From NCBI GenBank assembly GCA_035626775.1, contig DASPNA010000152.1, positions 64,135 through 128,134 of the forward strand: a stretch of 64,000 bases of DNA, in the 5' to 3' direction. Every line of letters begins with the position of its first letter. Position 1 is the stretch's first letter. This document shows, piece after piece, positions 1 to 63,479 of the stretch. The translations under genes were made by a program, and so were the position numbers. The stretch is from Thermoanaerobaculia bacterium. Its GTDB lineage: Bacteria; Acidobacteriota; Thermoanaerobaculia; Gp7-AA8. The notes beneath the pieces were generated by a model. That model was not told where the DNA came from. It made no database searches and worked only from the letters and a program-made list of their open reading frames with translations.

Positions 1-125
1 TCGCGGCCATGGCGATATGAAATACAACGATGGGCAGCTTCGCGATCGCGGCGGTGAAGTAGAGCGGCACCGCCGCGAACATCGTCAGCAGGAGCGTCTC
101 GATCTCACGCGCTCTTGGCGTCATG
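1..125 (-). CDS. N-terminal fragment of a membrane protein downstream of DUF58; continues beyond the window start. Possibly the transglutaminase-like/membrane partner of MoxR-DUF58 operons.
   Basis: Reverse complement of 1-125 reads MTPRAREIETLLLTMFAAVPLYFTAAIAKLPIVVFHIAMAA..., a hydrophobic N-terminus. The position after DUF58 matches the usual MoxR-DUF58-membrane protein order. It is a partial ORF only. Confidence 0.3.
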
Positions 126-1151
126 ACGTCCTCCTGCCAGCGAAAACACGACCGCGGTGCGATCGACGAGTTGATGCACCGGCTCGTGCTCCGCTTCCAC
201 CAGCGCCAGCGCGCGGAAGAGCGGCGCCGCGCTTTCGTCCTGCCGCGCGCGCAGCGTCACGCGCGGCATCGACAGCGTCACGTCCATCCCATCGCGGACG
301 GCGTAGTACACGAGCGTCGCCGCGGCGGCGATCATCTCCTCAAAGTCGTCTGTCGGTGTCCTGCGCGGTTTGTATGGATCGAGCACGACATGCAGCGACT
401 GTGACGCATCGGCCTCGTGCTGCTTCATGATCCAGCGGCCGAGGCTCGCGGATTTTTTCCAGTGCACCTGACGGAGCGAGTCGCCGCGCGCGTATTCGCG
501 GAACGCGTGGATCTCGGTTCCTTGTCCCGGGCGCGCGGCCGCGACTTCGTCGCCGAACGTCGCGCGGAAACGATCGCGCGCCGCGTCGTCGGCGTTGATG
601 CGCGGATAGACGACCACTTCGCTGCTGACGCGCAGGCGCCGCTTCTTCAGCACGAATCCGAACGGGTAACGCGTGTACGAATCGATCGCGCTCACATGCG
701 CGAGACCGCGGCGCGGAAAGAGAAATGTGGCTGCGACCTGGAGCGGCGGGCTCTTAGCCCGTCGAAGCCACCAACGGCCGACGGGCTGAGAGCCCGTCGC
801 TCCAGATGGCACGAGCGGGACCAGCACAGGTTCGGCGAGCGCTTCGGAGGTGAGGACGACATCGCGCACGTTCCAGAGACGCGAGTCGTTACGGATGCGC
901 AACGTGCCTTGCGCAGGACGTCCGGCCCACGCTTCCTCGATGCCCGCGATCTCGATGGTCAGATGTTTCAGGCCGCCCTTCGACGCGAGGCCGGAGAGCA
1001 ACAGGCAACCGAGCATCAGCGTGACGGCGATGTAAATCGCGTTGTTGCCGGTGTTGATCGCCGCGACCGCGAGGACCATCGTGGCGAGGATGTACGCCGT
1101 GCCGACTCGCGTCAGCCGAACGACGCCGTTGAACTCCCAGTCGTTGGTCAC
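105..1151 (-). CDS. DUF58 (vWA-like) domain protein, partner of the MoxR ATPase
   Basis: The 348-aa ORF carries the DUF58 hallmark IHAFREYARGDSLRQVHWKKSASLGRWIMKQHEADASQSLHVVLD. It sits immediately downstream of moxR. It also contains an in-frame copy of repeat family B (738-805). Confidence 0.8.
   Translation of the reverse strand: MTNDWEFNGVVRLTRVGTAYILATMVLAVAAINTGNNAIYIAVTLMLGCLLLSGLASKGGLKHLTIEIAGIEEAWAGRPAQGTLRIRNDSRLWNVRDVVLTSEALAEPVLVPLVPSGATGSQPVGRWWLRRAKSPPLQVAATFLFPRRGLAHVSAIDSYTRYPFGFVLKKRRLRVSSEVVVYPRINADDAARDRFRATFGDEVAAARPGQGTEIHAFREYARGDSLRQVHWKKSASLGRWIMKQHEADASQSLHVVLDPYKPRRTPTDDFEEMIAAAATLVYYAVRDGMDVTLSMPRVTLRARQDESAAPLFRALALVEAEHEPVHQLVDRTAVVFSLAGGRHDAKSA
738..805. repeat. 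Family B palindromic MITE/REP-like element, copy B1 (inside the DUF58 ORF)
   Basis: CTGGAGCGGCGGGCTCTTAGCCCGTCG...CGACGGGCTGAGAGCCCGTCGCTCCAG. Terminal inverted repeats and internal palindromes are shared with copies at 20032-20096 and 50362-50422 and a half copy at 35765-35785. Confidence 0.7.
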
Positions 1152-1159
1152 GGTTCGTC

Positions 1160-2122
1160 TTACCGGGGGACTGCGATCTCGCTGAGCAGCTTCTGGAGGA
1201 ACCGCGCTTCTGGCGATACATCGCCGCGGCTCATGCGCCGGTCCTTCATCACGATGCGATGCGACAACACCGGCACCGCCAGGCGCTTCACATCCTCGGG
1301 GATCACGAAGTCGCGTCCGCCGACCATCGCCAGCGCCTGGCAGGCCTTGAAGTACGTGAGCGCGCCGCGGGTCGAGACGCCGAGGGCGACGTCGCCATGC
1401 GTGCGCGTGATCTGCACGATCAGCATCAGGTACTCGACCAGCGCCTCGCTGACGTGCACGTCGCCGACGCGCGCCTGCAGCTCGCGCACTTCATCGCCGT
1501 CGAGCACAGCCTCGAGATGTTCGAGCGCGTCCTGTCCGCCGCCGGAGCGGAGGAGTTGCTTCTCGTCATTCGCGCTCGGATAGCCGATGGTGAGCTTCAT
1601 GAGGAAGCGGTCGAGCTGCGATTCCGGCAGCGGATACGTGCCGACGTGCTCGATCGGATTCTGCGTGGCGATGACCAGGAACGGATCGGGCAGCGGCATG
1701 CGCCGCTTCTCGATGGTAATGATGCCTTCGCTCATCGCCTCGAGCAGTGCGGATTGCGATTTCGGTGTGGCGCGATTGATCTCGTCGGCGAGCAGAACGT
1801 TGGTGAAGACCGGGCCGGAGACGAACTCGAACTCCTGCAGGTCCTGGTTGTAGATGGTGACGCCGACGATGTCGGAGGGGAGCAGATCGCTCGTGAACTG
1901 GATGCGCTGAAAGCCGAGCGACAGCGAGCGCGCCAGCGCATGTGCGAGCGTGGTCTTGCCGACGCCGGGAACGTCCTCGAGGAGGATGTGTCCCTTCGCG
2001 AGCAACGCGGCGATGCAGAACTGGATCACCTCCGACTTGCCGCGGATGACACGTTCTACGTTCTGCTGCAGCGCCGAAATGCGGTCGAGAGAGCGCGGGA
2101 CCGGTACGGGTTGCGTCGACAT
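1160..2122 (-). CDS. moxR: MoxR-family AAA+ ATPase
   Basis: Walker A LLEDVPGVGKTTLAHALA, Walker B VLLADEINRATP, and ATQNP, all typical MoxR. The protein is 320 aa. Confidence 0.9.
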   Translation of the reverse strand: MSTQPVPVPRSLDRISALQQNVERVIRGKSEVIQFCIAALLAKGHILLEDVPGVGKTTLAHALARSLSLGFQRIQFTSDLLPSDIVGVTIYNQDLQEFEFVSGPVFTNVLLADEINRATPKSQSALLEAMSEGIITIEKRRMPLPDPFLVIATQNPIEHVGTYPLPESQLDRFLMKLTIGYPSANDEKQLLRSGGGQDALEHLEAVLDGDEVRELQARVGDVHVSEALVEYLMLIVQITRTHGDVALGVSTRGALTYFKACQALAMVGGRDFVIPEDVKRLAVPVLSHRIVMKDRRMSRGDVSPEARFLQKLLSEIAVPR

Positions 2123-5900: not shown

Positions 5901-8900
5901 TTCATGGACGGCCTCGGGCGGACCGTACAGACGAGATCCGAAGCTGATCCGGCCAGGTCTGGTTTCGCAGAGGTGGTCTCGACTACGGTCTACGACGGTC
6001 TTGGCCGAGCAGTCAAGAGCCTCGTGCCCTGCTTCGCCGCGTCCAGCAGCAGCATCACGCCGCATTGCGGCTCGGTCGCCACCGAGATCGTATATGACGC
6101 TTTGAGCCGCCCGACAAAAGTCACCTCCCCTGGCGCGGTGACAGTGACCTCTGCTTTCACGCACCAGGACGGCCGCTGGCTCACCATCAATGTCGATGGA
6201 CGCGGGTTGACGACGAAGAGATTCTCGAACCTGCTCGGCCAGGTCGAGCAAATAGACCGGCAGTCCGCGCTCTGTGGCGGTTTCTGTACGGAAAGAGCCA
6301 CGTTCGACGCCGCCGGCCGAACCCTTACCCAGGGAGACGCAGAGGGAAACACCATCCGTTACACGTACGACGATCTCGGCCGACCGTTGTCGATGTCCGA
6401 CCCAAACCTGGGCAACTTGACTTATGCGTATGACGACAACGGAAACTTGACGCGGCAGGTTGATGCAAAGGGGCAGACGATCACATTCAACTATGACGCT
6501 CTGAATCGATTGACCCTCAAAGATTTGCCACCGGCCGGACCGAGCATCGAAGACGTCACCAATTTCTATGATGGCCAGGGACCGAAACCGCCCGATCCGG
6601 GGAGCGCGGCGGCGATCGCATCGATCGCTCCGAACGTGCGCGACGCCGGGACCGGCGCATTCACGCTGACTGTTGACGGCAGCAATTTCGTCGCCGGTTC
6701 TGTAGTGACTTTCAATGGTCAAAGCCGGGCCACGACCTTCGTTAGTTCGCAGCAACTGCGCGCCGCGATACTCGCCGGTGACGTCAACACTGCCGGCTCG
6801 TTCCCGGTGATGGTCGTGAGTCCAGCCCCTGGCGGCGCGTCGAATGCCGCGACGTTCGTCGTCAACGCACGACCAGTGGTCAGTGTGACGCGGCCTGCTG
6901 CGAGCGCGATCTTCGATGCGCCTGCCTCGATCATCGTGGAGGCTGCTGCGACCGACGGCGACGGCATCCGCCAAGTCGAGTTCTTCCAAGGTGCGGCAAC
7001 TTTGGGCGTTGACCAGACGGCGCCGTACTCGGTCAGCTGGAGCAGCGTTCCGGAGGGCACTTATCGATTGACGGCAGTCGCGACGGATACCCGCGGCAGC
7101 ACCACCACCTCGGCGCCGGTCGACGTCACTGTCCGGCCGGGCTCACCGGTGAACGCGTCACAGTTCGTTTCACAATCGGTCCCTGCTGTGATGGTGGCAG
7201 GGCGAACGTACAACGTTTCGGTCACGGTGCAGAACAGCGGTACTACGACATGGACCGCCGCTGATAAATACAATCTCGGCTCCGAGGGGCCGCGGGACAA
7301 CCAGACGTGGGGCTTACACCGCGCACCGCTTCCTGGGTCCGTGCCGCCAGGAGCGCAGGTCACGATCCCGTTCACGGTCACCGCGCCAGCCACACCGGGC
7401 GAGTACGGGTTCCAGTGGGGGATGGTGCAGGACATGGTGGGAGGAGGATGGTTCGGCGCCACCCCACGAGTCACCGTCCGTGCGGAATCGCCTGTGAATG
7501 CGTCACAGTTCGTTTCGCAATCGGTGCCTGCTGTGATGGTGGCAGGGCGAACGTACAACGTCTCGGTCACGGTGCAGAACAGCGGTACTACGACGTGGAC
7601 CGCCGCTGATAAATACAATCTCGGCTCCGAGGGGCCGCGGGACAACCAGACGTGGGGCTTACACCGCGCACCGCTTCCTGGATCCGTGCCGCCAGGAGCA
7701 CAGGTCACGATCCCGTTCACTGTCACCGCGCCAGCCACTCCGGGCGAGTACGGGTTCCAGTGGGGGATGGTGCGGGACATGGTGGGAGGAGGATGGTTCG
7801 GCGCCACCCCACGAGTCACGGTCCGTACGGAAGCACCGGTGAACGCCGCACTGTTCGTTTCACAATCGGTCCCTGCTGTGATGGCGGCAGGGCGAACGTA
7901 CGCCGTCTCGGTGACCATGCAGAACAGCGGTACTACGACATGGACTGCCGCTGATAAATACAATCTCGGCTCCGAGGGGCCGCGGGACAACCAGACGTGG
8001 GGCTTACACCGCGCACCGCTTCCTGGATCCGTGCCGCCCGGAGCGCAGGTCACGATCCAGTTCACGGTCACCGCGCCAGCCACTCCGGGCGAGTACGGCT
8101 TCCAGTGGGGGATGGTGCGGGACATGGTGGGAGGAGGATGGTTCGGCGCCACCCCACGAGTCACGGTCCGTACGGAAGCGGCGGTGAACGCGTCGCGCTT
8201 CGTTTCGCAAATCGTCCCTGCTGCGATGATCGCGGGGCGCACCTATACCGTCTCGGTGAAGATGCAGAACAGCGGTACTACGACCTGGACCGCGGCCGGC
8301 CTATACAACCTCGGCTCGCACGGGCCGCAGGACAACACGACATGGGGCTTGCATCGCACCCCGCTTCCGGCCTCAGTGCCGCCGGGTGCGGAGACGACGT
8401 TCCAGTTCACAGTCACGGCCCCAGCGACGCCGGCCAACTACGTCTTCCAGTGGCGCACCGTGCAGGACACCGTGCAGTGGTTCGGCGAACTGACACCGGC
8501 CGTCACGATCCCGGTGCTTTCCGCCGCGAAGACGGGGCTGATCGCGAGCTGGAACTTCGACGAGGGCATGGGTACGACGACCGCTGATGCCACTGGCAAT
8601 GGAAGCACGGGTACGGCGGGTAAGCTCGACTGGACAAAGGGACGTATGAATTCGGGACTGCGGTTCGTGAGCACAACCAACAACCCGGTGAGGATCAGCC
8701 CTTCGCCCAGGGTCTCTGCGCTGAGTAACGACTTCACGGTTTCGTTCTGGGCGCAGCCGGAGTCCGCGCATCAGATCGACGTGGCGAGCGGCAGCGGCGC
8801 TAGCGGTGTCACGGGCCAGAAATATGTGATTGGTCCGCGCTACGAGTCGTTTGGAGACGCAGGCATTGGCATCTCGCTCGGCAACAACGGAGTGAGTGTC

Positions 8901-18030: not shown

Positions 18031-18190
18031 GTGGAGCGCCGGCGCGTTTACGGAGTGCGGCGACGCCAGTCGCCGCTTTCCAACGCCGCAGCGGAAGCTG
18101 CGGCTGGCCCGCGGAGGCTGGCGCCTCCGCATAGAAAGCGGCAGCTGGCGCTGCCGCACTCCACACGGCGCGGGACGCCGGCGCTCCGCC
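18031..18190. repeat. Family C GC-rich nested palindromic element (C1) in the divergent ETF-QO / wecA-like intergenic region
   Basis: Outer arms GTGGAGCGCCGGCGC / GCGCCGGCGCTCC. Inner arms GGAGTGCGGCGACGCCAGTCGCCGC / GCGGCAGCTGGCGCTGCCGCACTCC. Related to copies at 22351, 26067 and 29162. Confidence 0.6.
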
Positions 18191-20031: not shown

Positions 20032-20096
20032 CTGGAGCGACGGGCTCTCAGCCCGTCGACGCACGAGAACCGACGGGCTGAGAGCCGTCGCTCCAG
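20032..20096. repeat. Family B element, copy B2
   Basis: CTGGAGCGACGGGCTCTCAGCCCGTCGACGCACGAGAACCGACGGGCTGAGAGCCGTCGCTCCAG. Confidence 0.75.
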
Positions 20097-20133: not shown

Positions 20134-20778
20134 ATGAAACGCCTCCTCGCCATCCTCTTCTTCACCCTGACGGCCTCGGCCGAGACGTTCACCTTCACGG
20201 TTGTGGGCATGGACTGCGCGGCGTGCGGCCCGCCCATCGTGAAGACGCTCAACGCCGTCGACGGCGTCGTGAACGCAAAGGTCGACTGGAAATCGAAGAC
20301 CGCCACGGTGGAGCTGCCGGCGAACTTCGACAAGCTGAAGATCCGCACCGCGCTGACGAACGCGGGCTTCGAGTCGGTGTTCCCGGGCGAAGATCGCCGC
20401 GAGATCCAGCCGCTGCCCGCCGACGTCGTGAAGACGCTCGACATCATCGAGTACAACGAAGGACGCAAGGTGGACATCCCCCGCCTCATGGCGCCCGGCA
20501 AAGTCACCATCGTCGACTTCTACGGCGCATGGTGCGGCCCATGCCGCGTGCTCGAGACGCGGCTGCAGCATCTGATGCGCGGCAAAAACAATCTCGCGCT
20601 GCGCCGCGTCGACATCGGCAAGTGGGACAACGAGGCGGCGAAGCAGGCCACGCGCGAGTTTCACGCCGAGGCGCTGCCGTACATCCGCGTGTATGACGCG
20701 AGCGGAGAGTTCGTTGGCGCCGTGACGGGCGGCATGTGGGACGAAGTGCTGGCGATGATCGCCAAGGCGGAGCGATGA
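20134..20778 (+). CDS. Heavy-metal-associated (HMA) domain - thioredoxin-fold fusion protein, secreted
   Basis: Signal MKRLLAILFFTLTASA. HMA motif GMDCAACGPP. Thioredoxin motif YGAWCGPCR. Confidence 0.75.
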   Translation: MKRLLAILFFTLTASAETFTFTVVGMDCAACGPPIVKTLNAVDGVVNAKVDWKSKTATVELPANFDKLKIRTALTNAGFESVFPGEDRREIQPLPADVVKTLDIIEYNEGRKVDIPRLMAPGKVTIVDFYGAWCGPCRVLETRLQHLMRGKNNLALRRVDIGKWDNEAAKQATREFHAEALPYIRVYDASGEFVGAVTGGMWDEVLAMIAKAER

Positions 20779-22388: not shown

Positions 22389-24086
22389 ATGTGCGGAATC
22401 GCGGCGATGTTCGCTTACCGCTCCGGCGCGATCGATCGCGCGGAGCTCGAGGCGATCACGGCGCGCATGATCCCGCGCGGTCCGGACGCCGGCGGCACCT
22501 GGCTCTCGGACGATCAGCGCATCGGCCTCGGCAGCAGGCGGCTGGCCATCATCGACCTCTCCGCGGAAGGCACGCAGCCGATGTGGGACGTCCAGCGCGA
22601 ACTGGTCATCGTCTTCAACGGCGAGATCTACAACCACGCCGAGCTGCGCGCATCGCTCACACGCGGCGGCGCGCAGTTCCACTCGCGCACCGACACGGAA
22701 GTCCTGCTCGGGCTCTATCGCCGCGACGGCGCGCGCATGACCGAGCTGCTGCGCGGGATGTTCGCGTTCGCGATCTTCGACACGCGCATGCGCCGGATGT
22801 TCGTCGCGCGCGATCCGTACGGCATCAAGCCGCTGTATCTCGCCGATGACGGCGCGACGATCCGCATCGCGTCAGAGGTGAAAGCTCTCACGGCCGGCGG
22901 ACGCGTATCGAACGCGATCGATCCCGCCGGCGCGGCCGGTTTCTTTCTCACCGGTTCGGTGCCGGAGCCCTTCACCATTCGCCGCCACGTCCGGGCGATC
23001 GAACCCGGCACGTCGTTCTTCATCGACGAAGAACGCGGCATCAACGAGCAACGCCGCTATTTCTCGATCGCCGAAGTCTTCCGCGACGCGAAAGACGACG
23101 CGCTCGTCGATCCCGCGGTCTTCGTGCGCGAGCGGCTCGAAGAATCGGTGACGCACCATCTCGTCGCGGACGTTCCGGTCGGCGTGTTTCTTTCGGCCGG
23201 CATCGACTCCTCCGCGATCGCACGCATCGCCGCGCGCAAGACGCTGCTGCACACGTTCACGCTCTCCTTCACGGAGTTCAGCGAGGCGCCGCTGGCGGAA
23301 CGATTCGCGCGCGAGCTCGGCATGAGCCAGATCACGCGCGTCGTCGGACGCGACGAGTTCCTCGGCGACCTGCCGCGCATCTTCGAGCGGATGGATCAGC
23401 CGACCATCGACGGCGTGAACACGTGGTTCATCAGCAAAGCGGCGCACGAAGCCGGCATCAAGCTCGCCCTCTCCGGCCTCGGCGGCGATGAGCTCCTCGG
23501 CGGTTATCCGTCGTTCAGGAACGTGCCGCGCATGGTGCGTTTCCCGCGCCTGGCACGCGTCGTTGGCGCGCTGCGGCGCCATCCGAAAGCGCGACTGATC
23601 CGCGAATATGGCGGCACGTACGCGGGCGCGTATCTGTTGCAACGCGGCCTCTTTCTCCCTGACGAACTGCCGGACATCCTCGGCGCCGACGTTGCGCGCG
23701 AAGGAATGGAGCGCCTGCAGCCCCTCGAGAACTTCGAGCGCGCGATCGAGCCCGATCCCGGCACGCCGTTCGGCCGCGTGGCCGCGCTCGAATCGTCGCT
23801 CTACATGCGCAATCAACTGCTGCGCGACGCCGACTGGGCGAGCATGGCCCATTCGGTGGAAGTGCGCACGCCGCTCGTCGACGTGTACCTGCTGCGCCAG
23901 CTCGCGCCGATGCTCGCGCAGCAGGGTGACAAGTCCGCGCTTGCCGCCGACCTCCCGGATTACCTGCGCGATCGCAAGAAGACCGGCTTCTTCGTGCCGA
24001 TGAAAGAGTGGGGGAACTTGCCGCCGGACGGCACATCGACGCGCATGCGCAGTTGGGCGCGACGCGTATGGGAATCGTTCGCATGA
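22389..24086 (+). CDS. Asparagine synthase (glutamine-hydrolysing) family amidotransferase, of the type found in exopolysaccharide loci
   Basis: N-terminal MCGIAAMF (class II GATase Cys2). RLAIIDL motif. Synthetase region LSAGIDSSAIA. Confidence 0.85.
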   Translation: MCGIAAMFAYRSGAIDRAELEAITARMIPRGPDAGGTWLSDDQRIGLGSRRLAIIDLSAEGTQPMWDVQRELVIVFNGEIYNHAELRASLTRGGAQFHSRTDTEVLLGLYRRDGARMTELLRGMFAFAIFDTRMRRMFVARDPYGIKPLYLADDGATIRIASEVKALTAGGRVSNAIDPAGAAGFFLTGSVPEPFTIRRHVRAIEPGTSFFIDEERGINEQRRYFSIAEVFRDAKDDALVDPAVFVRERLEESVTHHLVADVPVGVFLSAGIDSSAIARIAARKTLLHTFTLSFTEFSEAPLAERFARELGMSQITRVVGRDEFLGDLPRIFERMDQPTIDGVNTWFISKAAHEAGIKLALSGLGGDELLGGYPSFRNVPRMVRFPRLARVVGALRRHPKARLIREYGGTYAGAYLLQRGLFLPDELPDILGADVAREGMERLQPLENFERAIEPDPGTPFGRVAALESSLYMRNQLLRDADWASMAHSVEVRTPLVDVYLLRQLAPMLAQQGDKSALAADLPDYLRDRKKTGFFVPMKEWGNLPPDGTSTRMRSWARRVWESFA

Positions 24087-25123
24087 ACGTGCTCTTTCTC
24101 GTCACCGACGCGTACGGCGGCTACGGCGGCATCGCGCTTTTCAATCGCGAGCTGTGCGCGGCATTGCGCGACGCGCGCATCACCGTGATTCCGCGAATCG
24201 TGCGCGGCTCGGTTCCCGATCCGCCACCGCACGTGACGTTCATCGCGGAGGCGGCCAACGGTCCGGCGGCGTATCTGCGCGCGATCTCGAACGCGCGCCG
24301 CGCGAAGTGGGACCTGATCATCTGCGGCCATATCAACCTGCTGCCGGTGGCGACGTTCTGGCGTCCTCTGCTCGTCGTGCACGGCATCGAGGCGTGGAAG
24401 AAGCGGAAGATACCGATCGCGCAATGTCGCGGGATCGTATCGGTGAGCGCGCTGACGAGGGATCGCATGTGCGGCTGGTCGCGCTACGCCGGACCCGCGT
24501 ACGTGCTGCCGAACGCGGTGCATCTCGAACAGTACGGCATCCGCGAACAACGCGCGGATCTCATCGCGCGCTATCGTCTCGAAGGAAAGCGCGTGCTGCT
24601 CACGGTCGGCAGGCTCGATTCGGCGGAGCGCTCGAAGGGCTTCGATGAAGTGATCGACGTGCTGCGCGATCTGCCGGAGGACGTCGTGTACATGATCGCC
24701 GGCGGCGGAGATGATGCGTCGCGATTGCAGGCGCGCGCGCGCGAGCTCGGTGTGGCGTCGCGCGTCATCTTCACCGGGCTCTTTGGAGAAGAAGACAAGG
24801 CCGATCTCTACAACCTCGCCGATGTGTACGTGATGCCGAGCCGAGGGGAGGGCTTCGGCTTCGTGTTCCTCGAGGCGATGGCGTGCGGCGTGCCCGCGAT
24901 TGCAAGCAAACTCGATGGCGGCCGCGAGGCGCTGCTGAACGGAAAGCTCGGCGCGCTGGTCGATCCAACCAATCGCGCGGAGATCCGCGCGGCCATCCTC
25001 GAGACCTTGGAACGACGGGCTCTCGCCCCGTCGAGTCGGCGCATTCCGGAGGGACTCGAACATTTTTCGTTCGAGAACTTCGCGGCACGCGCGCAGGCGA
25101 TCATCGCTCGCGCAGCCGTCTGA
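24083..25123 (+). CDS. Glycosyltransferase, GT4 family
   Basis: ATG overlaps the asnB-like stop. C-terminal EGFGFVFLEAMACGVPAIAS motif. Confidence 0.8.
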   Translation: MNVLFLVTDAYGGYGGIALFNRELCAALRDARITVIPRIVRGSVPDPPPHVTFIAEAANGPAAYLRAISNARRAKWDLIICGHINLLPVATFWRPLLVVHGIEAWKKRKIPIAQCRGIVSVSALTRDRMCGWSRYAGPAYVLPNAVHLEQYGIREQRADLIARYRLEGKRVLLTVGRLDSAERSKGFDEVIDVLRDLPEDVVYMIAGGGDDASRLQARARELGVASRVIFTGLFGEEDKADLYNLADVYVMPSRGEGFGFVFLEAMACGVPAIASKLDGGREALLNGKLGALVDPTNRAEIRAAILETLERRALAPSSRRIPEGLEHFSFENFAARAQAIIARAAV

Positions 25124-26045: not shown

Positions 26046-26066
26046 GCGCGCCGATTCTCACATGTA

Positions 26067-26109
26067 TGGAGTGCGGCAGCGCCAGCTGCGGCTTTGCCGC
26101 CGCACTCCA
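26067..26109. repeat. Family C palindrome, copy C2
   Basis: GGAGTGCGGCAGCGCCAGCTGCGGCTTTGCCGCCGCACTCC. Confidence 0.6.
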
Positions 26110-26111
26110 GA

Positions 26112-27323
26112 TCAACCCGCGTGGGGCCATTCGCTGCCGGGATCGTCGTGTGCCCGTTTGCGCAGGCCGCGCACGAGCAGCTCCGCGACGCTGTCCGGAA
26201 CGCCGAGTCGCGTGAGAAAGCCCTCGTCGCGCGAGGCGGGAGGAAGCGCGCCGCCAACGCGCGCAGGCCGCGCGAGTGCATCGCGGAATGCGGCAGCCCA
26301 CGCATCGATCGCGCCCTGTTCGGAACGAATGCCCTGCTGCGACACGCGCGCCGCGCCCGACAACTTTTCGAGCAAAGCGCGATCGCGATGCAGACGCTCG
26401 ATCGCATCCGCCGCCGCGCCGATGTCGCCGATCGGAAAACGCAGTGCATTCTCGCCGTCGATGAAATCCTCGGAACCGACATCGAGCGACGTCACGGGCA
26501 CGACGCCATGCGCCATCGCCTCGCGTGGCGCGATGGTCAGCCCCTCATACTCCGCAAAGTGCACGAGCACATCGAGCTCCGGATAGACGCGCTCGTACAA
26601 CTCCGTCGTAGAAAGCCATCCGTGCATGCGCGCGCGGGGCAGACGCGAGCGAAGCTCCTCGAGCAGCGTCCCGTCTCCTGCCACATCGAGCGTGAACGGA
26701 ATCGCGCGACGTTCCAGCTCTTCGACGAGCAACGGCAGATCGCGCACGCGCTTCTGCACCTGCTCGAGTCTCCCGACGTAGCCGATGCGCAGCGGTCCGT
26801 CGTTTGACGCATGCATGCGATGCGGACTCGCGACGCCGCCCGGGATACTCACTGCCGGCACGGAAGTCATCCGTTGCACCTCGTCGAGTATGCGCCGGCC
26901 GCTCGTGACGCAGACATCGACGAACTCTCGATAGCGCGCGAGGTCCACAAAGTACTCGCGCTCGAAGGCCTGCACGGTCACGGCTAAACGCAGCCGATGC
27001 CCAGCTCGTTTGAGTGCCGACGCTACCGGATACGCGTCGAACATGCGCGCGATCAGTACGACGTCCGGATCGGTCTCGAACATCACGCGGCGCAATGCGC
27101 GCCTGCGCCCGTACACGGTGCCGCTGGTGCCGTCGACGTCGACGCCGCGCACGTCGGGAAACGCGCGCCGGAACGCATCGGGATCGTGAAACCGCTTCCC
27201 TTTCGCGAGCGCGAACACCACCTCGAACCCGCGCGACGGCAGGTGCCGCGCCAGCGACTCCATGATCCGCTCGACGCCGCCCTGCAGGTAGTGCGTCGGC
27301 GTGCAGATGAGGACGCGCGCCAT
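26112..27323 (-). CDS. Glycosyltransferase, GT4 family
   Basis: The 403-aa protein has the general organisation of GT4 enzymes (assigned by eye). Confidence 0.7.
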   Translation of the reverse strand: MARVLICTPTHYLQGGVERIMESLARHLPSRGFEVVFALAKGKRFHDPDAFRRAFPDVRGVDVDGTSGTVYGRRRALRRVMFETDPDVVLIARMFDAYPVASALKRAGHRLRLAVTVQAFEREYFVDLARYREFVDVCVTSGRRILDEVQRMTSVPAVSIPGGVASPHRMHASNDGPLRIGYVGRLEQVQKRVRDLPLLVEELERRAIPFTLDVAGDGTLLEELRSRLPRARMHGWLSTTELYERVYPELDVLVHFAEYEGLTIAPREAMAHGVVPVTSLDVGSEDFIDGENALRFPIGDIGAAADAIERLHRDRALLEKLSGAARVSQQGIRSEQGAIDAWAAAFRDALARPARVGGALPPASRDEGFLTRLGVPDSVAELLVRGLRKRAHDDPGSEWPHAG

Positions 27324-28316: not shown

Positions 28317-29206
28317 GACTCTCCGTCGTGATGGCGGTGTTCAACGGCGCGCGCACGCTCGACGCGACGCTGCAGAGCATCCTCACCCAGAGCGAGCGTG
28401 ATTTCGAGTTGATCGCGATCGACGACGGCTCGACCGACGAAACACCCGCGATCCTGGCGCGCTGCGAAGATCCACGACTGCGCTTGATCACGCAGGCCAA
28501 TGCGGGACTCACGCGCGCGCTCATCCGCGGTTGCGGCGAGGCGCGCGCCGACGTCATCGCGCGCCACGATTGCGGCGATCGTTCGCGGCCCGAGCGGTTC
28601 GCGCGGCAGCTCGCGCTACTTGAACAGGGACACGCGGTCGTGTCCTGTGCGACGCGTTTCGTCGATGGCGATGGTGACTTTCTGTATGTCTCGCGCGCGA
28701 ATGGCGAGGAAGTGCGGCGCAGTCTGGTCAGCGATGACGCGCGTGCCATTCACGCGCTGCCGCATCACGGCTCGGCGATGTTCACACGCGACGCATATGA
28801 GCGCGCGGGCGGGTATCGCGAAGAGTTTCGCGTTGCGCAGGATCTCGATCTCTGGATCCGTATCGCGCGCGACGGTGGGACGTTCGCGATCGATGACGAA
28901 GTTCTGTACGAGGCCACGGTCGACGCGCGCAGCATCAGCGGAACCGCGCGCGACGCGCAGGTGCGGCTTACCGAGATCGCGGTTGCGTTGCGCGATGGTC
29001 GCGGGTCGCTCGATGACGCGCGAGCGGTACAACCAGCGCGAATGACACCGCGCGGCGAAGCGGCGGCGTTGTATTTCATCGCGAGGTGTCTGCTGCGGCA
29101 GAAGAATCGGAAGGGGTGGCGGATGTTACTCGATGCGATACGGCGCGATCCGCTGCTGCTATGGAGTGCGGCAGCGAAGCTGCCGCTTTCAAAGCGGCGG
29201 CGATAG
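28313..29206 (+). CDS. Glycosyltransferase, GT2 family
   Basis: ATGA overlap with the upstream gene. SVVMAVFNGARTL...ELIAIDDGSTDET. The C-terminus runs into repeat C3. Confidence 0.8.
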   Translation: MRLSVVMAVFNGARTLDATLQSILTQSERDFELIAIDDGSTDETPAILARCEDPRLRLITQANAGLTRALIRGCGEARADVIARHDCGDRSRPERFARQLALLEQGHAVVSCATRFVDGDGDFLYVSRANGEEVRRSLVSDDARAIHALPHHGSAMFTRDAYERAGGYREEFRVAQDLDLWIRIARDGGTFAIDDEVLYEATVDARSISGTARDAQVRLTEIAVALRDGRGSLDDARAVQPARMTPRGEAAALYFIARCLLRQKNRKGWRMLLDAIRRDPLLLWSAAAKLPLSKRRR

Positions 29207-29260
29207 CCGCCGCACTTCAGGGTGCGGCAGCGAAGCTGCCGGCTTTGCCGCCGCACTCCA
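29162..29260. repeat. Family C palindromic element, copy C3 (two tandem hairpin modules)
   Basis: GGAGTGCGGCAGCGAAGCTGCCGC ... GCCGCCGCACTTCAGGGTGCGGCAGCGAAGCTGCCGGCTTTGCCGCCGCACTCC. Confidence 0.65.
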
Positions 29261-30332
29261 TCATGATCTCGGCGATGCGGTCGCCGATCGCGGTCCAGTT
29301 GTATTGCGGCAGGACCGATGCGTGCGCGTTCGACGCCAGTCTTGCGCGCAGCTCTTCATCGCGCGCGAGCATTTCGATCGCGTTCGCCAGCGCGAGCGGA
29401 TCGCCGGGTGGAACGAGCAGCCCGTTCTCGCCGTCGCGCACGACGGCACGATTCGCATCGATGTTCGTCGCGATCACCGGCAGGCCGCACGCGAGCGCCT
29501 CGAGCACCACGAGCGCGAAGCCCTCGCTGAGCGTGGCGGTGATGAAGACGTCGTGCTCGGAATAGAGGCGGCCGAGGGAAGAGCGGGGAACGCTGCCGAG
29601 GAATTGGACGTGCGGGAGATCGGCGGCGGCGCCGCGCAGGCCGGTCTCCAGCGCTCCGCTGCCGGCGATAGTCAACTCCGCGTCGTGAACATTGCGCATC
29701 GCCGCAACCAGATCATCGACACCTTTTTCGATCGAAAGGCGACCAACGCTGATCAAACGCAGCGGCCGCGACGAAGTACGCACGACCGGCACGTCGATGC
29801 CGAGGTCGTGGAGGTCGATGCCATTGGGAACGACTTCGACGCGGCGCGCCCCGTGTCGCCGCACCACATCGGCAAGATGCGGCGCGACTACGAACACGAC
29901 GTCCGCGGAGCGATACGCGCGCGGTGCGATCCAGCGATAGAACGCAGTGAGCCGTGGGTCGTACGTTCCTTTCGGCCGTTCGAAGATGTCCCCGTGCACG
30001 AAGAACCCGACAAGGATGCCCAGGCCACGCGTGCCGATGTGCGCGGCGCTATGCGCGTGAACGAGGATGAAATCGGGTTTGTGCAGCGACTGCAGCACCA
30101 CTCGCGCGCCGCGGCCGAAGAGGACTTCATCCGGCACATGACGGAAGCGGCGCAGCGAATAAAGGTCCGGCAGCCGCACCCGCGCCCGCACCATTCCGTG
30201 CGTGTCTTCCGGAAACGTATCGGAGACGAGCGTGACCTGCGCGTGGCGCGTCAGCTCGCGCGCCTGGCGCATCGCCACCGAGGCGACAGCACCCGCTCCG
30301 CCGAGGGCACGGCAAACAATCGCAACGTGCAT
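29217..30332 (-). CDS. Glycosyltransferase, GT4 family
   Basis: GT-B organisation with a C-terminal E..E/G-rich nucleotide-sugar motif (VLEALACGLPVIAT). Confidence 0.8.
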   Translation of the reverse strand: MHVAIVCRALGGAGAVASVAMRQARELTRHAQVTLVSDTFPEDTHGMVRARVRLPDLYSLRRFRHVPDEVLFGRGARVVLQSLHKPDFILVHAHSAAHIGTRGLGILVGFFVHGDIFERPKGTYDPRLTAFYRWIAPRAYRSADVVFVVAPHLADVVRRHGARRVEVVPNGIDLHDLGIDVPVVRTSSRPLRLISVGRLSIEKGVDDLVAAMRNVHDAELTIAGSGALETGLRGAAADLPHVQFLGSVPRSSLGRLYSEHDVFITATLSEGFALVVLEALACGLPVIATNIDANRAVVRDGENGLLVPPGDPLALANAIEMLARDEELRARLASNAHASVLPQYNWTAIGDRIAEIMMECGGKAGSFAAAP

Positions 30333-32420: not shown

Positions 32421-32517
32421 CAGTTCCTCGGAGCACCTCGGTTCCTCGGAGTTCCTCGGAGGAGCTGAGACTCCCGTCCGACGAACCCCGAGGTACTCTG
32501 AGGAAACCGAGGTACTG
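32421..32517. repeat. Family A hairpin repeat, copy A2
   Basis: AGTTCCTCGGAGCACCTCGGTTCCTCGGAGTTCCTCGGAGG ... CCCCGAGGTACTCTGAGGAAACCGAGGTACTG. Confidence 0.75.
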
Positions 32518-33921: not shown

Positions 33922-35018
33922 TGCGCATCCTGCATGTCGTTCCGACGTACCTTCCGGCGCGGCGATACGGCGGACCGATCGTGGCCGTTCATGGACTCTG
34001 CAAAGCGCTCGCGGCGCGCGGTCATGAAGTCGACGTCTTCACGACCAACGTCGACGGCGATCGCACGCTCGACGTTCCGGAAAGCAAACCGGTCGACGTC
34101 GACGGCGTGCGCGTGACCTATTTCCCTTCGCCATTCCGCCGTCTGTACTGGTCACCCGCGATGCGCAAGGCGCTCGCGGTGCGCATCCGCACGTATGACG
34201 TCGTGCACATTCACGCCGTGTATCTGTGGACCGGGATCGCCGCCGCACGCGCCGCGCGCAACGCACGCGTGCGTTACGTGATCTCGCCGCGCGGCATGCT
34301 CGTGCACGAGCTCATCCGCCGCAAGAGCCGCATGGTCAAGACGCTGTGGCTGCGCTTGCTGGAGCGCCGCGGCTTCGATGCCGCCGCCGCGATCCACTTC
34401 ACCACGGTCCTCGAAGGACAGGAAGCCGCTCGCATCGGCCTGCCGCTGCCGTCGCCATTCGTGGTACCGAATGGCATCGACCTGGTGCCGCGCCCGAACA
34501 TCGCCCGCGACGAAAACACGCTGGTCTTCCTCGGCCGCGTGACGTGGAAGAAAGGACTCGACCGCGTCCTCGAAGCCTTGCCTTCGCTGGCGAATGTGCG
34601 ATTCGTCATCGCGGGCAATGATGAGGAATCGCTCACGCCGAAACTGCGCGAGCTCGCGCAAAAGCTCGGCGTCGCCGATCGCGTGGAGTTCCTCGGTCCG
34701 GTGTATGGCGCCGCAAAATACGAGCTGCTCGCGCGCGCCACGCTGTTCGTACTGATGTCGACGTCGGAGAACTTCGGGAACGCCGTGCTCGAAGCGTTGA
34801 TGATGGAGACGCCTGTGGTGCTTTCGCAGGAAGTCGGACTCGCGGCAGAGGTGGCGCGCGCCGGCGCGGGCGTGATCGGATTGGAGGAAGTGCCCGCCCT
34901 GCTGCACGATCGCGGACGGCGCACGCGCATGGGACGGCACGGCCGGGCGCTGGTCGAGTCGCGTTTCTCCTGGCCGCGAATCGCCGAGGAAATGGAGCGC
35001 GCGTATGCAGCTCTCTGA
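33921..35018 (+). CDS. Glycosyltransferase, GT4 family
   Basis: MRILHVVPTYLP...GGP; SENFGNAVLEALMMETPVV. Confidence 0.8.
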   Translation: MRILHVVPTYLPARRYGGPIVAVHGLCKALAARGHEVDVFTTNVDGDRTLDVPESKPVDVDGVRVTYFPSPFRRLYWSPAMRKALAVRIRTYDVVHIHAVYLWTGIAAARAARNARVRYVISPRGMLVHELIRRKSRMVKTLWLRLLERRGFDAAAAIHFTTVLEGQEAARIGLPLPSPFVVPNGIDLVPRPNIARDENTLVFLGRVTWKKGLDRVLEALPSLANVRFVIAGNDEESLTPKLRELAQKLGVADRVEFLGPVYGAAKYELLARATLFVLMSTSENFGNAVLEALMMETPVVLSQEVGLAAEVARAGAGVIGLEEVPALLHDRGRRTRMGRHGRALVESRFSWPRIAEEMERAYAAL

Positions 35019-35763
35019 GATCACGCCGCTAATTCTCACGCGCGATGAGGAAGCGAACCTCGAGCGCACGCTCGCGCAGCTTTCGTGGGCGGACGATGTG
35101 GTGATCGTCGACAGTTTCTCGACCGACGCGACCGTCGAGATCGCGCGGCGCTTTCCGAACGTGCGCGTGCTGCGGCGCGAGATGGACACGCTTGCCGGTC
35201 AGAGCAACTACGGGCTGCAGCAGGCGCACACGCCATGGGTGCTGCTGCTCGACGCCGACTATTTCGTTCCTGCCGCATTCGTCGACGAGTTGCGCGAGAT
35301 CGAGCCCCCGAGTGGCACGCGCGCATACGCCGCGTCGTTTCGTTACGCGATCGGCGGCAAGCCGCTGCGCGCGTCGCTGTATCCCGCACGCATCGTGCTG
35401 CTGCATCGCGAGCACGCAACTGTATGGCAGGACGGCCACGCGCATCGCGTCACCGCGGACGGCGACGTGCGCATGCTGTCGACGAAGATCGTTCATGACG
35501 ACCGCAAACCATTCGCGCGTTTCATCGAACGGCAGAAACGCTACATGCGCGAAGAAGCGGAGAAACTGCGCCACGCCGATCCGCGCGCACTTTCGATTCC
35601 GGGACGCCTGCGCAAACTGATCGTGGTCGCGCCGGTTGCGGTGGTCATCCATTCACTGTTCGTGAAGGGACTGATCCTCGACGGCGTGTCCGGCCTGCGC
35701 TACACGTGGGAACGCTTCGTGGCGGAGTTGATCCTGTCGCGCGAGATGATGCGCCGAAGGTGA
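35005..35763 (+). CDS. Glycosyltransferase, GT2 family
   Basis: PLILTRDEEANLERTL...VVIVDSFSTD...LLDADY. Confidence 0.75.
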   Translation: MQLSEITPLILTRDEEANLERTLAQLSWADDVVIVDSFSTDATVEIARRFPNVRVLRREMDTLAGQSNYGLQQAHTPWVLLLDADYFVPAAFVDELREIEPPSGTRAYAASFRYAIGGKPLRASLYPARIVLLHREHATVWQDGHAHRVTADGDVRMLSTKIVHDDRKPFARFIERQKRYMREEAEKLRHADPRALSIPGRLRKLIVVAPVAVVIHSLFVKGLILDGVSGLRYTWERFVAELILSREMMRRR

Positions 35764-35764
35764 T

Positions 35765-35785
35765 CTGGAGCGACGGGCTCTAGTG
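35765..35785. repeat. Family B element, half copy (B4: left arm only)
   Basis: CTGGAGCGACGGGCTCTA immediately after the GT2 stop. Confidence 0.45.
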
Positions 35786-47164: not shown

Positions 47165-47268
47165 CGAGTACCTCGGGTACCTCGGAGTTCCTCGGAGGGG
47201 CGTGGTCAGGAGATACTCCTTCTCCCCCGAGGAACTCCGAGGTACTCCGAGGAACTCCGAGGTACTCG
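47165..47268. repeat. Family A hairpin repeat, copy A3 (between wzc-like and cpsB-like)
   Basis: GAGTACCTCGGGTACCTCGGAGTTCCTCGGAGG ... CCCCGAGGAACTCCGAGGTACTCCGAGGAACTCCGAGGTACTCG. Confidence 0.8.
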
Positions 47269-47270
47269 TA

Positions 47271-48065
47271 ATGATCGACATCCACCACCACTGCCTGCCC
47301 GGTGTCGATGACGGTCCGGGCGAGCTCGATGAAGCGGTCGATCTCTGCGCCGCCGCAGCGGAAGCGGGGATCGAAACGATCGTGGCGACGCCGCATGTGT
47401 TGCGCGGGCGGTGGCGGGTGTTCTCGCGGCTCGAGTTGCAATCGCGGCTCGACGAGCTCCGCGCACGCGTCGGAGAAACGCCACGCATCCTCCTCGGCTG
47501 CGAATACTTTTTCAGTCACGACATGGCCGATGTGCTGCGCGAAGGCACGTCCGTGTTCGCGCTGGCGGGCAGCCGTTACGTGCTGCTCGAGCTGCCGGCG
47601 AACAGCGTGCCGCCGATGTTCAATCAGCCGCTGTATCGTGCGCAGCTCGACGGATGGCTGCCAATCCTCGCGCATCCGGAGCGCAACACGGTCTTTCAAG
47701 CGAATCCGGAGATCCTCGCGGCGCTCATCGGCCATGGCCTGCGCGTGCAGCTCACAGCGACGAGCCTGACCGGCGCATTTGGATCGCACGCGCGTGCGGC
47801 GGCGGAGACGCTGCTGCAGCGCCGGCTCGTGCATTTCGTGGCCACGGATGCGCATAACACGAGCAAGCGTCCGCCGCGGATGGCCGAGGCGCTGGCGGCG
47901 CTGCGGGAGCTCGTCGGAGAGGAAGTCGCGACGGCGTTGACCGTCGATAACCCGCGCGCCGTGATCGAAAACCGGGCGCTGCCGTACGATCCGGAACCGC
48001 AGGAAGTCGACTCTCCCGGACTTTTCACGCGACTCCGCGGGTTTTTCCGCCCGAACCAGGCTTAA
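47271..48065 (+). CDS. CpsB/YwqE-type PHP-family protein-tyrosine phosphatase
   Basis: MIDIHHHCLPGVDDGP ... ATPHV ... HPER ... TDAHN motifs. Confidence 0.8.
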   Translation: MIDIHHHCLPGVDDGPGELDEAVDLCAAAAEAGIETIVATPHVLRGRWRVFSRLELQSRLDELRARVGETPRILLGCEYFFSHDMADVLREGTSVFALAGSRYVLLELPANSVPPMFNQPLYRAQLDGWLPILAHPERNTVFQANPEILAALIGHGLRVQLTATSLTGAFGSHARAAAETLLQRRLVHFVATDAHNTSKRPPRMAEALAALRELVGEEVATALTVDNPRAVIENRALPYDPEPQEVDSPGLFTRLRGFFRPNQA

Positions 48066-49563: not shown

Positions 49564-50340
49564 CTAGAGAGCCTTCGCTTCTTCTTTGATGTACTTCAGG
49601 ATTTCGCGGGCCGCGTTCGCGGGATCGGAGCCGTCGATCTTGCGGCCTCCGCTCTTTTCCGCGGGCAGCTCGAGCGAGAGCACGACCACGCGATTCTTGT
49701 AGATGTCGCTGTCGTCGAGGCCGAGATCGGCGACGCTCTTCGTGTCGATGGCGATCTTCTTCGCGGCCATGATGCCCTTGAGCGACGAGTAGCGCGGCTC
49801 GTTCAATCCCTTCTGTGCAGTCACGATCGCAGGAATCGGCGACTCGAGCACTTCCTCGGCACCTTCAATCTCGCGATGCGCGGTGAGCTTGCCCTCGCCG
49901 ACTTCGAGATGCGTGACGACGTTGACCTGCGGGTAGCCAAGAAGCTCGGCGAGCATCGGACCGACGAGACCGTTGTCGGTGCCGACGCCCTGCTTGCCGA
50001 GAAACACCAGATCGTGCGGTACGGTCTTGATGGCGGCGCCAAGGACCTTGGCGATGCCGAGCGAATCGGCGTCCCCGGACTCGCCCTTGATGTGCAGCGC
50101 CTTGGTTGCGCCGCGCGCGAGGCATTCGCGCAACGCCTGTTGCGCACGCTCGGGGCCGAACGTGACGACGGTGACGTCGCCGCCCGATTTCTCTTTCTGG
50201 CGGATCGCTTCCTCGAGCGCGAACTCGTCGTACGGCGAGACGATGAACTTCAGTCCGGCCTCGTCGACCTTGCGGCCGTCGGCGATCTTGATGCGCGATT
50301 CGGTATCGGGAACGTGAGAGATGCAGACCACGGAATTCAA
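49564..50340 (-). CDS. etfB: Electron transfer flavoprotein beta subunit
   Basis: LNSVVCISHVPDTESRIKI... with TTG start 8 bp after GGAGG. The annotated longer ORF lacks an in-frame Met at the true N-terminus. Confidence 0.8.
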   Translation of the reverse strand: MNSVVCISHVPDTESRIKIADGRKVDEAGLKFIVSPYDEFALEEAIRQKEKSGGDVTVVTFGPERAQQALRECLARGATKALHIKGESGDADSLGIAKVLGAAIKTVPHDLVFLGKQGVGTDNGLVGPMLAELLGYPQVNVVTHLEVGEGKLTAHREIEGAEEVLESPIPAIVTAQKGLNEPRYSSLKGIMAAKKIAIDTKSVADLGLDDSDIYKNRVVVLSLELPAEKSGGRKIDGSDPANAAREILKYIKEEAKAL

Positions 50341-50361
50341 GAGGGAAACCTCCGGTAAGTT

Positions 50362-50422
50362 CTGGAGCGGCGGGCTCTCAGACCGCCGGCGTGAATGAGG
50401 GGCTGAGAGCCCGTCGCTCCAG
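50362..50422. repeat. Family B element, copy B3
   Basis: CTGGAGCGGCGGGCTCTCAGACCGCCGGCGTGAATGAGGGGCTGAGAGCCCGTCGCTCCAG. Confidence 0.7.
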
Positions 50423-50523
50423 CGGCGAAGCCGCGCAATTCTAGTGATGAGGCACGCAAATCGCAATCGCGTTTCGGCCAAGCAGAAATCTCCCCGAAAC
50501 AACGCCAGGAACGGAGGACGGCG

Positions 50524-62886: not shown

Positions 62887-62971
<85 letters not shown>

Positions 62972-63288: not shown

Positions 63289-63377
63289 GGATTCTCCGAT
63301 GCGCTGACCCGAAACGGGGCAGGGACGCGGATTGTTCCCGAGTCGCGGAGGTTCGTCAAGCCCCTGTTTGGGCGGAG

Positions 63378-63479
63378 TCGCAGAGTCTCAGAGTCTCAGA
63401 GTCTCAGAGGGTTTTGCGGCATGCGCTGCGCCTGAAGAATACCCTCTGAGACTCTGAGACTCTGAGACTCTGCGACTCG
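63378..63479. repeat. Element D: hairpin built from 3 tandem CAGAGTCT units per arm in the tpiA-secG intergenic region
   Basis: GTCGCAGAGTCTCAGAGTCTCAGAGTCTCAGAGGGT-(loop)-ACCCTCTGAGACTCTGAGACTCTGAGACTCTGCGAC. Confidence 0.8.

Follow-up and report, generated by a model that had tools for sequence, protein, structure and literature searches.

A probable REP family with REPIN-like dimers in Thermoanaerobaculia, one copy of which lies in frame within a DUF58 gene

A 64,000-nt stretch of contig DASPNA010000152.1 from a Thermoanaerobaculia bacterium (the whole stretch is called the window below) contains copies of a short palindromic repeat, here named family B. Family B is very probably a family of repetitive extragenic palindromes (REPs) that form dimers similar to REPINs (REP doublets forming hairpins), and forms part of a system of REPs and REP-associated tyrosine transposases (RAYTs) in Thermoanaerobaculia; its copy B1 is with the same high confidence an in-frame insertion in a gene of the DUF58 family. 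The initial annotation had called the element "MITE/REP-like", MITE standing for miniature inverted-repeat transposable element. The REP-like part of this name holds, as the units are tagged hairpins, mostly form head-to-head dimers and flank a RAYT gene on the related contigs L083 and L088. Identity with a MITE in the strict sense is not supported, since no target-site duplication and no parent encoding a DDE transposase were seen. Because the same REP flanks a RAYT gene and target sites are not duplicated, the family is placed with REP/REPIN-RAYT systems and not with classical MITEs. Features typical of REPs are all observed, namely a stem-loop with compensatory variation, many dispersed copies, inverted pairing and absence of target-site duplication.

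In the 27-nt REP unit, the hairpin CGACGGGCT-CTC-AGCCCGTCG is preceded by the unpaired tag CTGGAG. The initial annotation had described the arms as palindromic themselves, which is correct: each folds alone into a 9-bp stem with a 3-nt loop. Across loci, the consensus is the tag followed by NNNC-GGGCTCTCAGCCC-GNNN; of 107 unique units, 98 have CTGGAG as their tag, and of 107 unique arms, 84 have a stem of the consensus CGAC/GTCG type. Folded as DNA, a single arm has an energy of -11.5 kcal/mol (z = -4.1), and the whole dimer makes one long hairpin of -35.8 kcal/mol (z = -10.2). Covariation is seen at the three basal stem pairs, for which the combinations CGAC/GTCG, TGCC/GGCA, CGGC/GCCG, GAAC/GTTC, CACC/GGTG and TACC/GGTA were recorded. 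Among 48 distinct units there are 35 double-change cells, the observed score being reached in none of 500 shuffles, and the stem is paired in 94% of cells as compared with 17-46% when the partner is slid.

Units occur alone, each as a hairpin, and in clusters; in metagenome loci, 54 of 75 clusters are dimers with outward-facing tags (+/-). Spacers of the dimers are 4-20 nt long, each different and without shared sequence, which applies to 44 unique dimers (L037-L084) as well as to the three dimers of the window. The metagenome-assembled genome (MAG) SMAG_U3424 has heterodimers and an 8-nt outer extension (consensus CGTKCTCT), and the window and the Ga0196977/8 genomes have CGAC homodimers and a weaker CCAT/ATGG extension; the junction of CCAT with CTGGAG is common to the right arm of B1 and the left arm of B2. 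The possibility that CGTKCTCT in SMAG_U3424 or CCAT in window-type genomes is a target motif was considered and judged less likely. Since these flanks border dimers on each outer side and also adjoin the RAYT gene, they are more likely to be part of the element. The first six flank bases of B1, CGTGCC, which lie 5' of it on the coding strand, are native by comparison with the orthologous locus L001 and match the SMAG_U3424 outer flank CGTKCY at six positions, reflecting either a target or microhomology preference or chance (about 1 in 500 under uniform base composition).

Five family-B sites were found in the window, two of them intragenic (Table 1). At up to 3 mismatches, the 21-mer of the arm has 8 matches in the window against 0.01 expected from shuffles. 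The initial annotation had reported three full copies, and re-reading of the copies found them exactly where it had placed them. It had also listed a half copy at 35765-35785, which exists and ends at 35783; this truncated unit lies directly 3' of the TGA stop of the gene at 35005-35763. The right arm of B2 has a 1-nt deletion, and the left flank of B2 is CCAT, like the flank of the right arm of B1. Next to B3, the Shine-Dalgarno sequence (GGAGG) of a minus-strand etfB-like gene starts 6 nt beyond the end of the repeat. A sigma-70-like site, TTGCGA-17-TAGAAT, was noticed upstream of B3 on the minus strand (region 50438-50466, with 50325-50361 also listed); transcription from it would put the B3 hairpin into the 5' untranslated region (UTR) of the etfB-like gene. 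The decayed single unit encodes LERRALAPS within its glycosyltransferase-like coding sequence. At this REP loop the protein is about 6 residues longer than its homologues, which are at most 59% identical and variable in loop length.

B2 and B3 were also considered as Rho-independent terminators. This identity was dropped, as no T-run signature of an intrinsic terminator is present at either hairpin, the flanks being CCAT/ATGG. Rfam search of the window gave no match to family B; the sole match above threshold is a tRNA gene at 62890-62971 (minus strand).

Family B is abundant and dispersed in Thermoanaerobaculia genomes and metagenomes. In a public collection scanned with the arm sequence, one genome per species, at least 33 loci were retrieved, nearly all of them in a single MAG, Thermoanaerobaculia SMAG_U3424; the genome-scan matches listed include one from SMAG_U4347 and one from an Acidobacteriota MAG. 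The metagenomes of the Joint Genome Institute (JGI), scanned for perfect homodimers, yielded 48 loci, nearly all from the two sister samples Ga0196977 and Ga0196978, with none of which the window overlaps. An intergenic copy differs in presence between loci L007 and L053. SMAG_U3424 additionally contains units tagged GTGGAG with a 2-nt loop (GTGGAG CGGC GGGCT-TC-AGCCC GCCG). Duplicated target sites, for which the initial annotation had proposed a check of the flanks, were seen neither at the empty site of B1 nor, above the level of shuffles, among the 44 unique dimers: direct repeats of at least 3 nt at the ends were present in 0-1 of these dimers, as compared with 0.4-1.1 in shuffles.

The link to a transposase comes from related contigs. 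Contig L083 (1136 bp) contains an open reading frame (ORF) of 151 amino acids at 73-528 with the HUH motif DHVHLIV and YYLMNNPVRAKLV. This ORF matches Pfam Y1_Tnp with 35.8 bits (cut-off 23) and the NCBIfam equivalog "REP-associated tyrosine transposase" (REP_Tyr_transpos) with 87.6 bits (cut-off 80), and its best solved relatives are ISDra2 and IS608 TnpA chains. The ORF is preceded, at a distance of 46 nt, by a window-type unit (...CGTCGCTCCAG, followed by ATGG) and followed, after 13 nt, by a full window-type dimer (CCAT, then CTGGAG...CTCCAG, then ATGG). The RAYT of contig L088, 66% identical to that of L083, is flanked by inverted CTGGAG units, so that on both contigs the RAYT gene is bordered by the same REPs. 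Several homologues of the L083 RAYT are named REP-associated or RayT in their source records, and several come from Thermoanaerobaculia MAGs. On longer contigs, the homologues occupy a syntenic locus, UnbV_ASPIC (FG-GAP) - Peptidase_M48 - RAYT - MacB/FtsX; in L085, L086, L091 and L092 the RAYT is located at about 2501 or 1501, always with the conserved neighbourhood. Judged from sequence, such a conserved locus is as expected of a vertically inherited, single-copy RAYT. In L085-L087 and L090-L092, the units flanking the RAYT are tagged GTGGAG and have the same or a similar hairpin. The repeat thus covaries with its RAYT and, since units beside homologous RAYTs carry GTGGAG, CTGG differs by a single base from GTGG, one of the forms of the GT[AG]G tag.

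B1 is the best documented intragenic copy. As had been claimed, it lies within the DUF58 ORF without introducing a stop codon and encodes SGATGSQPVGRWWLRRAKSPPLQ. On the coding (minus) strand it reads SGATGSQPV-GRWWL-RRAKSPPLQ, residues 116-138 being encoded by a T plus the 68-nt element. Relatives of the protein are Thermoanaerobaculia and Acidobacteriota proteins of about 329-332 amino acids. The initial annotation had suggested alignment to orthologues. When 26 sequences are aligned, 17 additional residues at one position distinguish the window protein from all others; all 25 orthologues lack them, including the closest one (locus L001, 91% protein identity). Comparison with L001 at the DNA level defines the boundaries, GTGCCA, T plus 68 nt, GTCGCA in the window corresponding to GTGCCG, AAGCGTTCCTCGATCACG (18 nt), GTCGCG in L001, with no target-site duplication. 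In other words, 18 nt (6 codons) have given way to 69 nt (23 codons). The gain of about 23 residues stated previously is corrected to a net gain of 17, because six native residues (KRSSIT in L001) are missing. Since none of the 25 aligned orthologues has the residues, sequence comparison shows that B1 is a derived in-frame insertion and that the element does not derive from the gene. By hand comparison, the 14-nt spacer and the native 18 nt are identical at 8 of 15 positions, which is suggestive and not significant.

The DUF58 gene looks alive by its sequence. Relative to L001, its ratio of nonsynonymous to synonymous substitution rates (dN/dS) is 0.15 for the gene as a whole, 0.11 for the part preceding the insert and 0.14 for the part following it (dS 0.33), and coding-type G+C content at third codon positions (GC3) is kept in one frame across B1. 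The identical 348-residue protein (P0001) is on record from 2 contigs. The AlphaFold model places the insert between two strands (109-112 and 137-144) of the N-terminal beta-sandwich, with a predicted local distance difference test (pLDDT) below 50 at residues 118-123 and 126-128. According to this model, the insert is probably a loop between two beta-strands and, owing to this location, the protein probably still folds.

In-frame copies recur across the lineage. A copy was taken as intragenic if one frame passes through the element without a stop codon and G+C content at the three codon positions (GC1/2/3) is of coding type over 240 nt on each side. By this definition, copies lie in frame within genes at 9 of the 40 sites that could be evaluated in the SMAG_U3424 loci and at 18 of the 58 unique ones in the Ga0196977/8 loci. 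With 22-31% of sampled sites in coding sequence, the family departs from the classical extragenic location of REPs. Bacterial genomes are typically about 85-90% coding, and relative to this general density, family-B copies are depleted in coding sequence. The earlier remark that in-frame tolerance of such an element is uncommon is valid for bacteria in general and does not describe this lineage, in which about a quarter to a third of sampled copies are in frame. Pfam domains that span the element or lie to either side of it confirm genes for an aldolase/SDR fusion, an M56 peptidase, TilS, YfhO, an AAA-TPR-BTAD regulator and a DUF3857-transglutaminase protein, and likewise for PEP carboxylase, an AMP-binding enzyme, an AraC regulator (at its linker), a HlyD-type protein and an alpha/beta hydrolase.

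Of the six frames in which the unit can be read, one contains TGA and the other five are open. Besides frames read from the tag such as WSDGLSARR, the open ones include RRAESPSLQ and DGLRARRSR in the other direction. Hand counting of tag-first frames gave 18 cases of SGATGSQPV, 6 of LERRALSPS and 3 of WSDGLSARR, a skew which fits a filter for benign, flexible peptides. The commonest frame combination, SGATGSQPV...RRAESPSLQ, is the one used by B1.

In the aldolase/SDR gene, a dimer is present at the same position in SMAG_U3424 (L002, 5703-5764) and Ga0196977 (L050, 3624-3688). The flanks are about 80% identical coding DNA, the spacers are unrelated, and the arms are perfect for each genome type, CACC/GGTG plus CGAC in one and CGAC plus CGAC in the other. 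Hypervariability of the interdomain linker in all 120 orthologues makes insertion boundaries unreadable there. Either arms have evolved in concert at a kept site, or insertion into a permissive linker has been repeated. At the same place in locus L094 (about 830-910), a contig from a different Thermoanaerobaculia lineage, a dimer of another REP family, family C, lies in frame; it has the tag TGGAG and a GCGGCGGC-type hairpin, forms a hairpin of 72 nt, encodes FGVRRPQPPLSEHTKAVAAATALQ and matches family C of the window. A tentative and rather improbable extension is that REP hairpins repeatedly write short, frame-biased peptides into loops and interdomain linkers of both ordinary and essential genes across Thermoanaerobaculia (PEP carboxylase, TilS, acyl-CoA synthetase and the aldolase/SDR linker being those named), with intragenic sites retained from species to species, arms continually re-homogenised to the REP type current in each genome and spacers turning over. 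If true, RAYT/REP activity would be a steady source of linker and loop variation in proteins, or intragenic hairpins would be under selection.

As to mechanism, a single-copy HUH/Y1 transposase, the RAYT, would act in trans and mobilise units or dimers in the form of single-stranded DNA hairpins, in a process resembling IS200/IS605 transposition that leaves no target-site duplication. Judging by the known behaviour of RAYTs and IS200/IS605 enzymes, the RAYT most likely moves the repeats; what bears on mobilisation in our data is presence or absence at orthologous sites (DUF58, and L007 versus L053). B1 very probably entered the DUF58 gene after the lineage split from its closest sampled relative, in an event that removed or overwrote 18 nt of native sequence. 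It would have survived because five of six unit frames are stop-free, the frame used encodes small polar residues and the site is a loop between two beta-strands.

Several observations weigh against this interpretation. No RAYT was found in the window and the 33 genome loci, either by motif regular expression or by tblastn with E. coli RayT, nothing HUH-like is encoded by ORFs beside the REP clusters of L033, L017 and L026, and L083 is the exception in some 660 kb of related loci; as the window has no RAYT, the link to a cognate RAYT rests on contigs L083 and L088. The tag CTGG(AG) deviates from canonical GT[AG]G, and its first base, C, sets family B apart from the GTAG tag and its variants GYAG, GYRG, GTRG, GTMG and GTGG, which the GTGGAG tags of the sister systems fit. 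Spacers are unrelated between copies, which would not be expected if a REPIN replicated as a fixed unit; the arms may be spread as single units, as dimers or by gene conversion. Replacement of 18 native nt at B1 would not be predicted for clean cut-and-paste insertion. Finally, the DUF58 structure model is moderate (mean pLDDT 65.6, 26-row alignment), and for this reason the insert is called probably a loop and no more than that.

The same data can be read in other ways. A dimer resembles two 27-nt terminal inverted repeats around a short core, and AT is found at both ends in 16 of 44 dimers, as might be seen in a classical MITE, i.e. a non-autonomous derivative of a DDE-type insertion sequence (IS) with terminal inverted repeats and target-site duplication. 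This origin is very improbable and largely refuted. The AT belongs to the CCAT/ATGG extension, itself palindromic, and the empty site of B1 lacks it, direct end repeats of 3 nt or more do not exceed shuffles, the units occur singly as hairpins, and the internal "core" differs at every copy; moreover, the sole transposase adjoining the repeat is the Y1 RAYT, and no parent IS was seen in the window or the loci. Misassembly that placed a repeat in the DUF58 gene, or a dead pseudogene with a chance open frame, would be conceivable in a metagenome assembly, in which short repeats may mislead assemblers, and at high G+C content, which yields long spurious ORFs. Such an artefact is hardly credible given that the identical protein comes from 2 contigs, that the flanks of B1 are colinear with the L001 orthologue on both sides, that dN/dS is low on either side of B1 with coding-type GC3 in one frame across it, and that in-frame copies recur in dozens of genes from independent assemblies.

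It could also be argued that the hairpins are maintained by the host, being kept by selection as RNA or DNA signals (mRNA stability or processing, protein binding, supercoiling). The stem covariation speaks for this, as do the aldolase/SDR site, with its perfect species-type arms, compensatory stem changes and unrelated spacers, and the position of B3 immediately upstream of a Shine-Dalgarno sequence, in what may be a 5' UTR. Nevertheless, copies differ in presence between close relatives, occupy unrelated genes and intergenic contexts in every orientation, show neither a T-run terminator signature nor an Rfam match, and are decaying at B2 and B3. We consider host maintenance unlikely; it is, however, compatible with mobilisation by a RAYT.

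Placement of family B among REP-RAYT systems assigns an unannotated repeat of an uncultured soil Acidobacteriota lineage to a class, together with a candidate transposase and its cognate hairpin, and B1 adds a well-documented intragenic REP dimer with an empty-site comparison. REP repeats explain lineage-specific inserts of 9-25 residues in many Thermoanaerobaculia proteins, which should not be taken as functional motifs or frameshifts. The high intragenic share, the unique spacers and the species-specific arms bear on the question of what spreads: single units, dimers or gene conversion.

Other repeats are present in the window (Table 1). Family C forms head-to-head dimers. Tandem palindromes of 10-bp units constitute a distinct repeat class, (GAGTACCTCG)n facing (CGAGGTACTC)n, with (GAGTCTCAGA)n at the fourth of the listed positions. 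A 345-bp unit is repeated four times in tandem at 7125-8459, the copies showing 76-95% identity to the reference copy; it probably represents a repeated domain in a gene.

Table 1. Family-B copies, other repeats and neighbouring genes (window coordinates unless a locus is named)
Feature	Position	Strand	Length or sequence	Description
B1	738-805	.	68 nt	head-to-head REP dimer (REPIN-like) inside DUF58 gene
B1 left arm	738-764		CTGGAGCGGCGGGCTCTTAGCCCGTCG	2 differences from consensus
B1 spacer	765-778		14 nt	
B1 right arm	779-805		CGACGGGCTGAGAGCCCGTCGCTCCAG	perfect consensus, reverse orientation
B2	20032-20096	.	65 nt	intergenic REP dimer; 37 nt upstream of ATG at 20134
B3	50362-50422	.	61 nt	decayed REP dimer with degenerate inner stems; intergenic, between divergent genes
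Truncated REP unit	35765-35783	+	CTGGAGCGACGGGCTCTAG	tag + 5' half of hairpin
Decayed single REP unit	25006-25033	+	TTGGAACGACGGGCTCTCGCCCCGTCG	in glycosyltransferase-like coding sequence 24008-25123 (+)
DUF58 family gene	105..1151	-	348 aa	Pfam DUF58 match
MoxR-type AAA+ ATPase gene	1160-2122	-		upstream of DUF58 gene
Family C	18111-18166, 26064-26112, 29161-29263		xTGGAG + GCGGCAGC-N3/4-GCTGCCGC	head-to-head dimers; tag + hairpin
10-bp-unit palindromes	2192-2339, 32432-32505, 47176-47277, 63372-63478		41-44-nt arms	intergenic; 95-98% complementarity
GTGGAG-tagged 2-nt-loop units	L006 3879-3905, L015 3778-3804, L020 7271-7297			

REPINs and RAYTs were defined by Bertels and Rainey (PMC3116915, PMC3337134). 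Di Nocera et al. 2013 (PMC3733652) described tagged REPs in more than 80 species, with sub-families distinguished by complementary stem changes, head-to-head dimers with variable spacers as the main form, RAYT genes flanked by GTAG REPs, and intragenic REP dimers encoding 20-30 amino acids. Family B shares with GTAG REPs and REPINs associated with RAYTs (Nunvar 2010; PMC3116915; PMC3733652; E. coli RayT/TnpA-REP) a hairpin of 20-40 nt with an unpaired end tag, compensatory stem sub-families, head-to-head dimers, absence of target duplication and many dispersed copies; its relatives also share the Y1 transposase gene, present in single copy at a syntenic locus and bordered by the repeats. The spacer is conserved in Pseudomonas REPINs, whereas that of family B is unique at each locus. 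Further differences are the host, Thermoanaerobaculia, and an intragenic share of 22-31% in spite of the word "extragenic" in the name. No description of family B came up in a single search of the literature on REPs in Acidobacteria, which is weak evidence of absence.

With IS200/IS605 elements (IS608, ISDra2 TnpA), family B has in common the Y1_Tnp match of the L083 RAYT and, presumably, the chemistry on single-stranded hairpin ends without duplication. In contrast to these elements, the repeats are not the ends of a multicopy transposase gene, the RAYT resides at a conserved chromosomal locus and no TnpB is present.

Rickettsia palindromic elements (RPEs; RPE-1, RPE-4/6), reportedly described by Ogata and colleagues in 2000, are said to be the classic in-frame repeats of many protein-coding genes. 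A link of RPEs to CGTC REPs has been made (PMC3733652). Like family B, RPEs are palindromes tolerated in frame at surface-exposed positions, where they add short peptides. They differ in that RPE-1 measures 100-150 bp, RPEs of the CGTC type have no associated transposase, no sequence relationship to family B exists and they reside in the reduced genome of an alphaproteobacterium that is obligately intracellular.

The intragenic location of B1 is real, but the phenomenon is already documented for REP families in other bacteria. The nearest parallel is offered by GTAG-17/18/19 REPs of Opitutus terrae (PMC3733652), for which Additional file 3 of that study lists some 70 intragenic inserts in this species alone. 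As in family B, units and dimers occur in frame, dimers adding about 15-30 residues rich in G/A/S/P; O. terrae is likewise a high-G+C soil bacterium, and similar host genes, e.g. AraC regulators, are affected. Family B differs from them in sequence family and phylum, in the observed loss of 18 nt of native sequence and in its clear frame bias.

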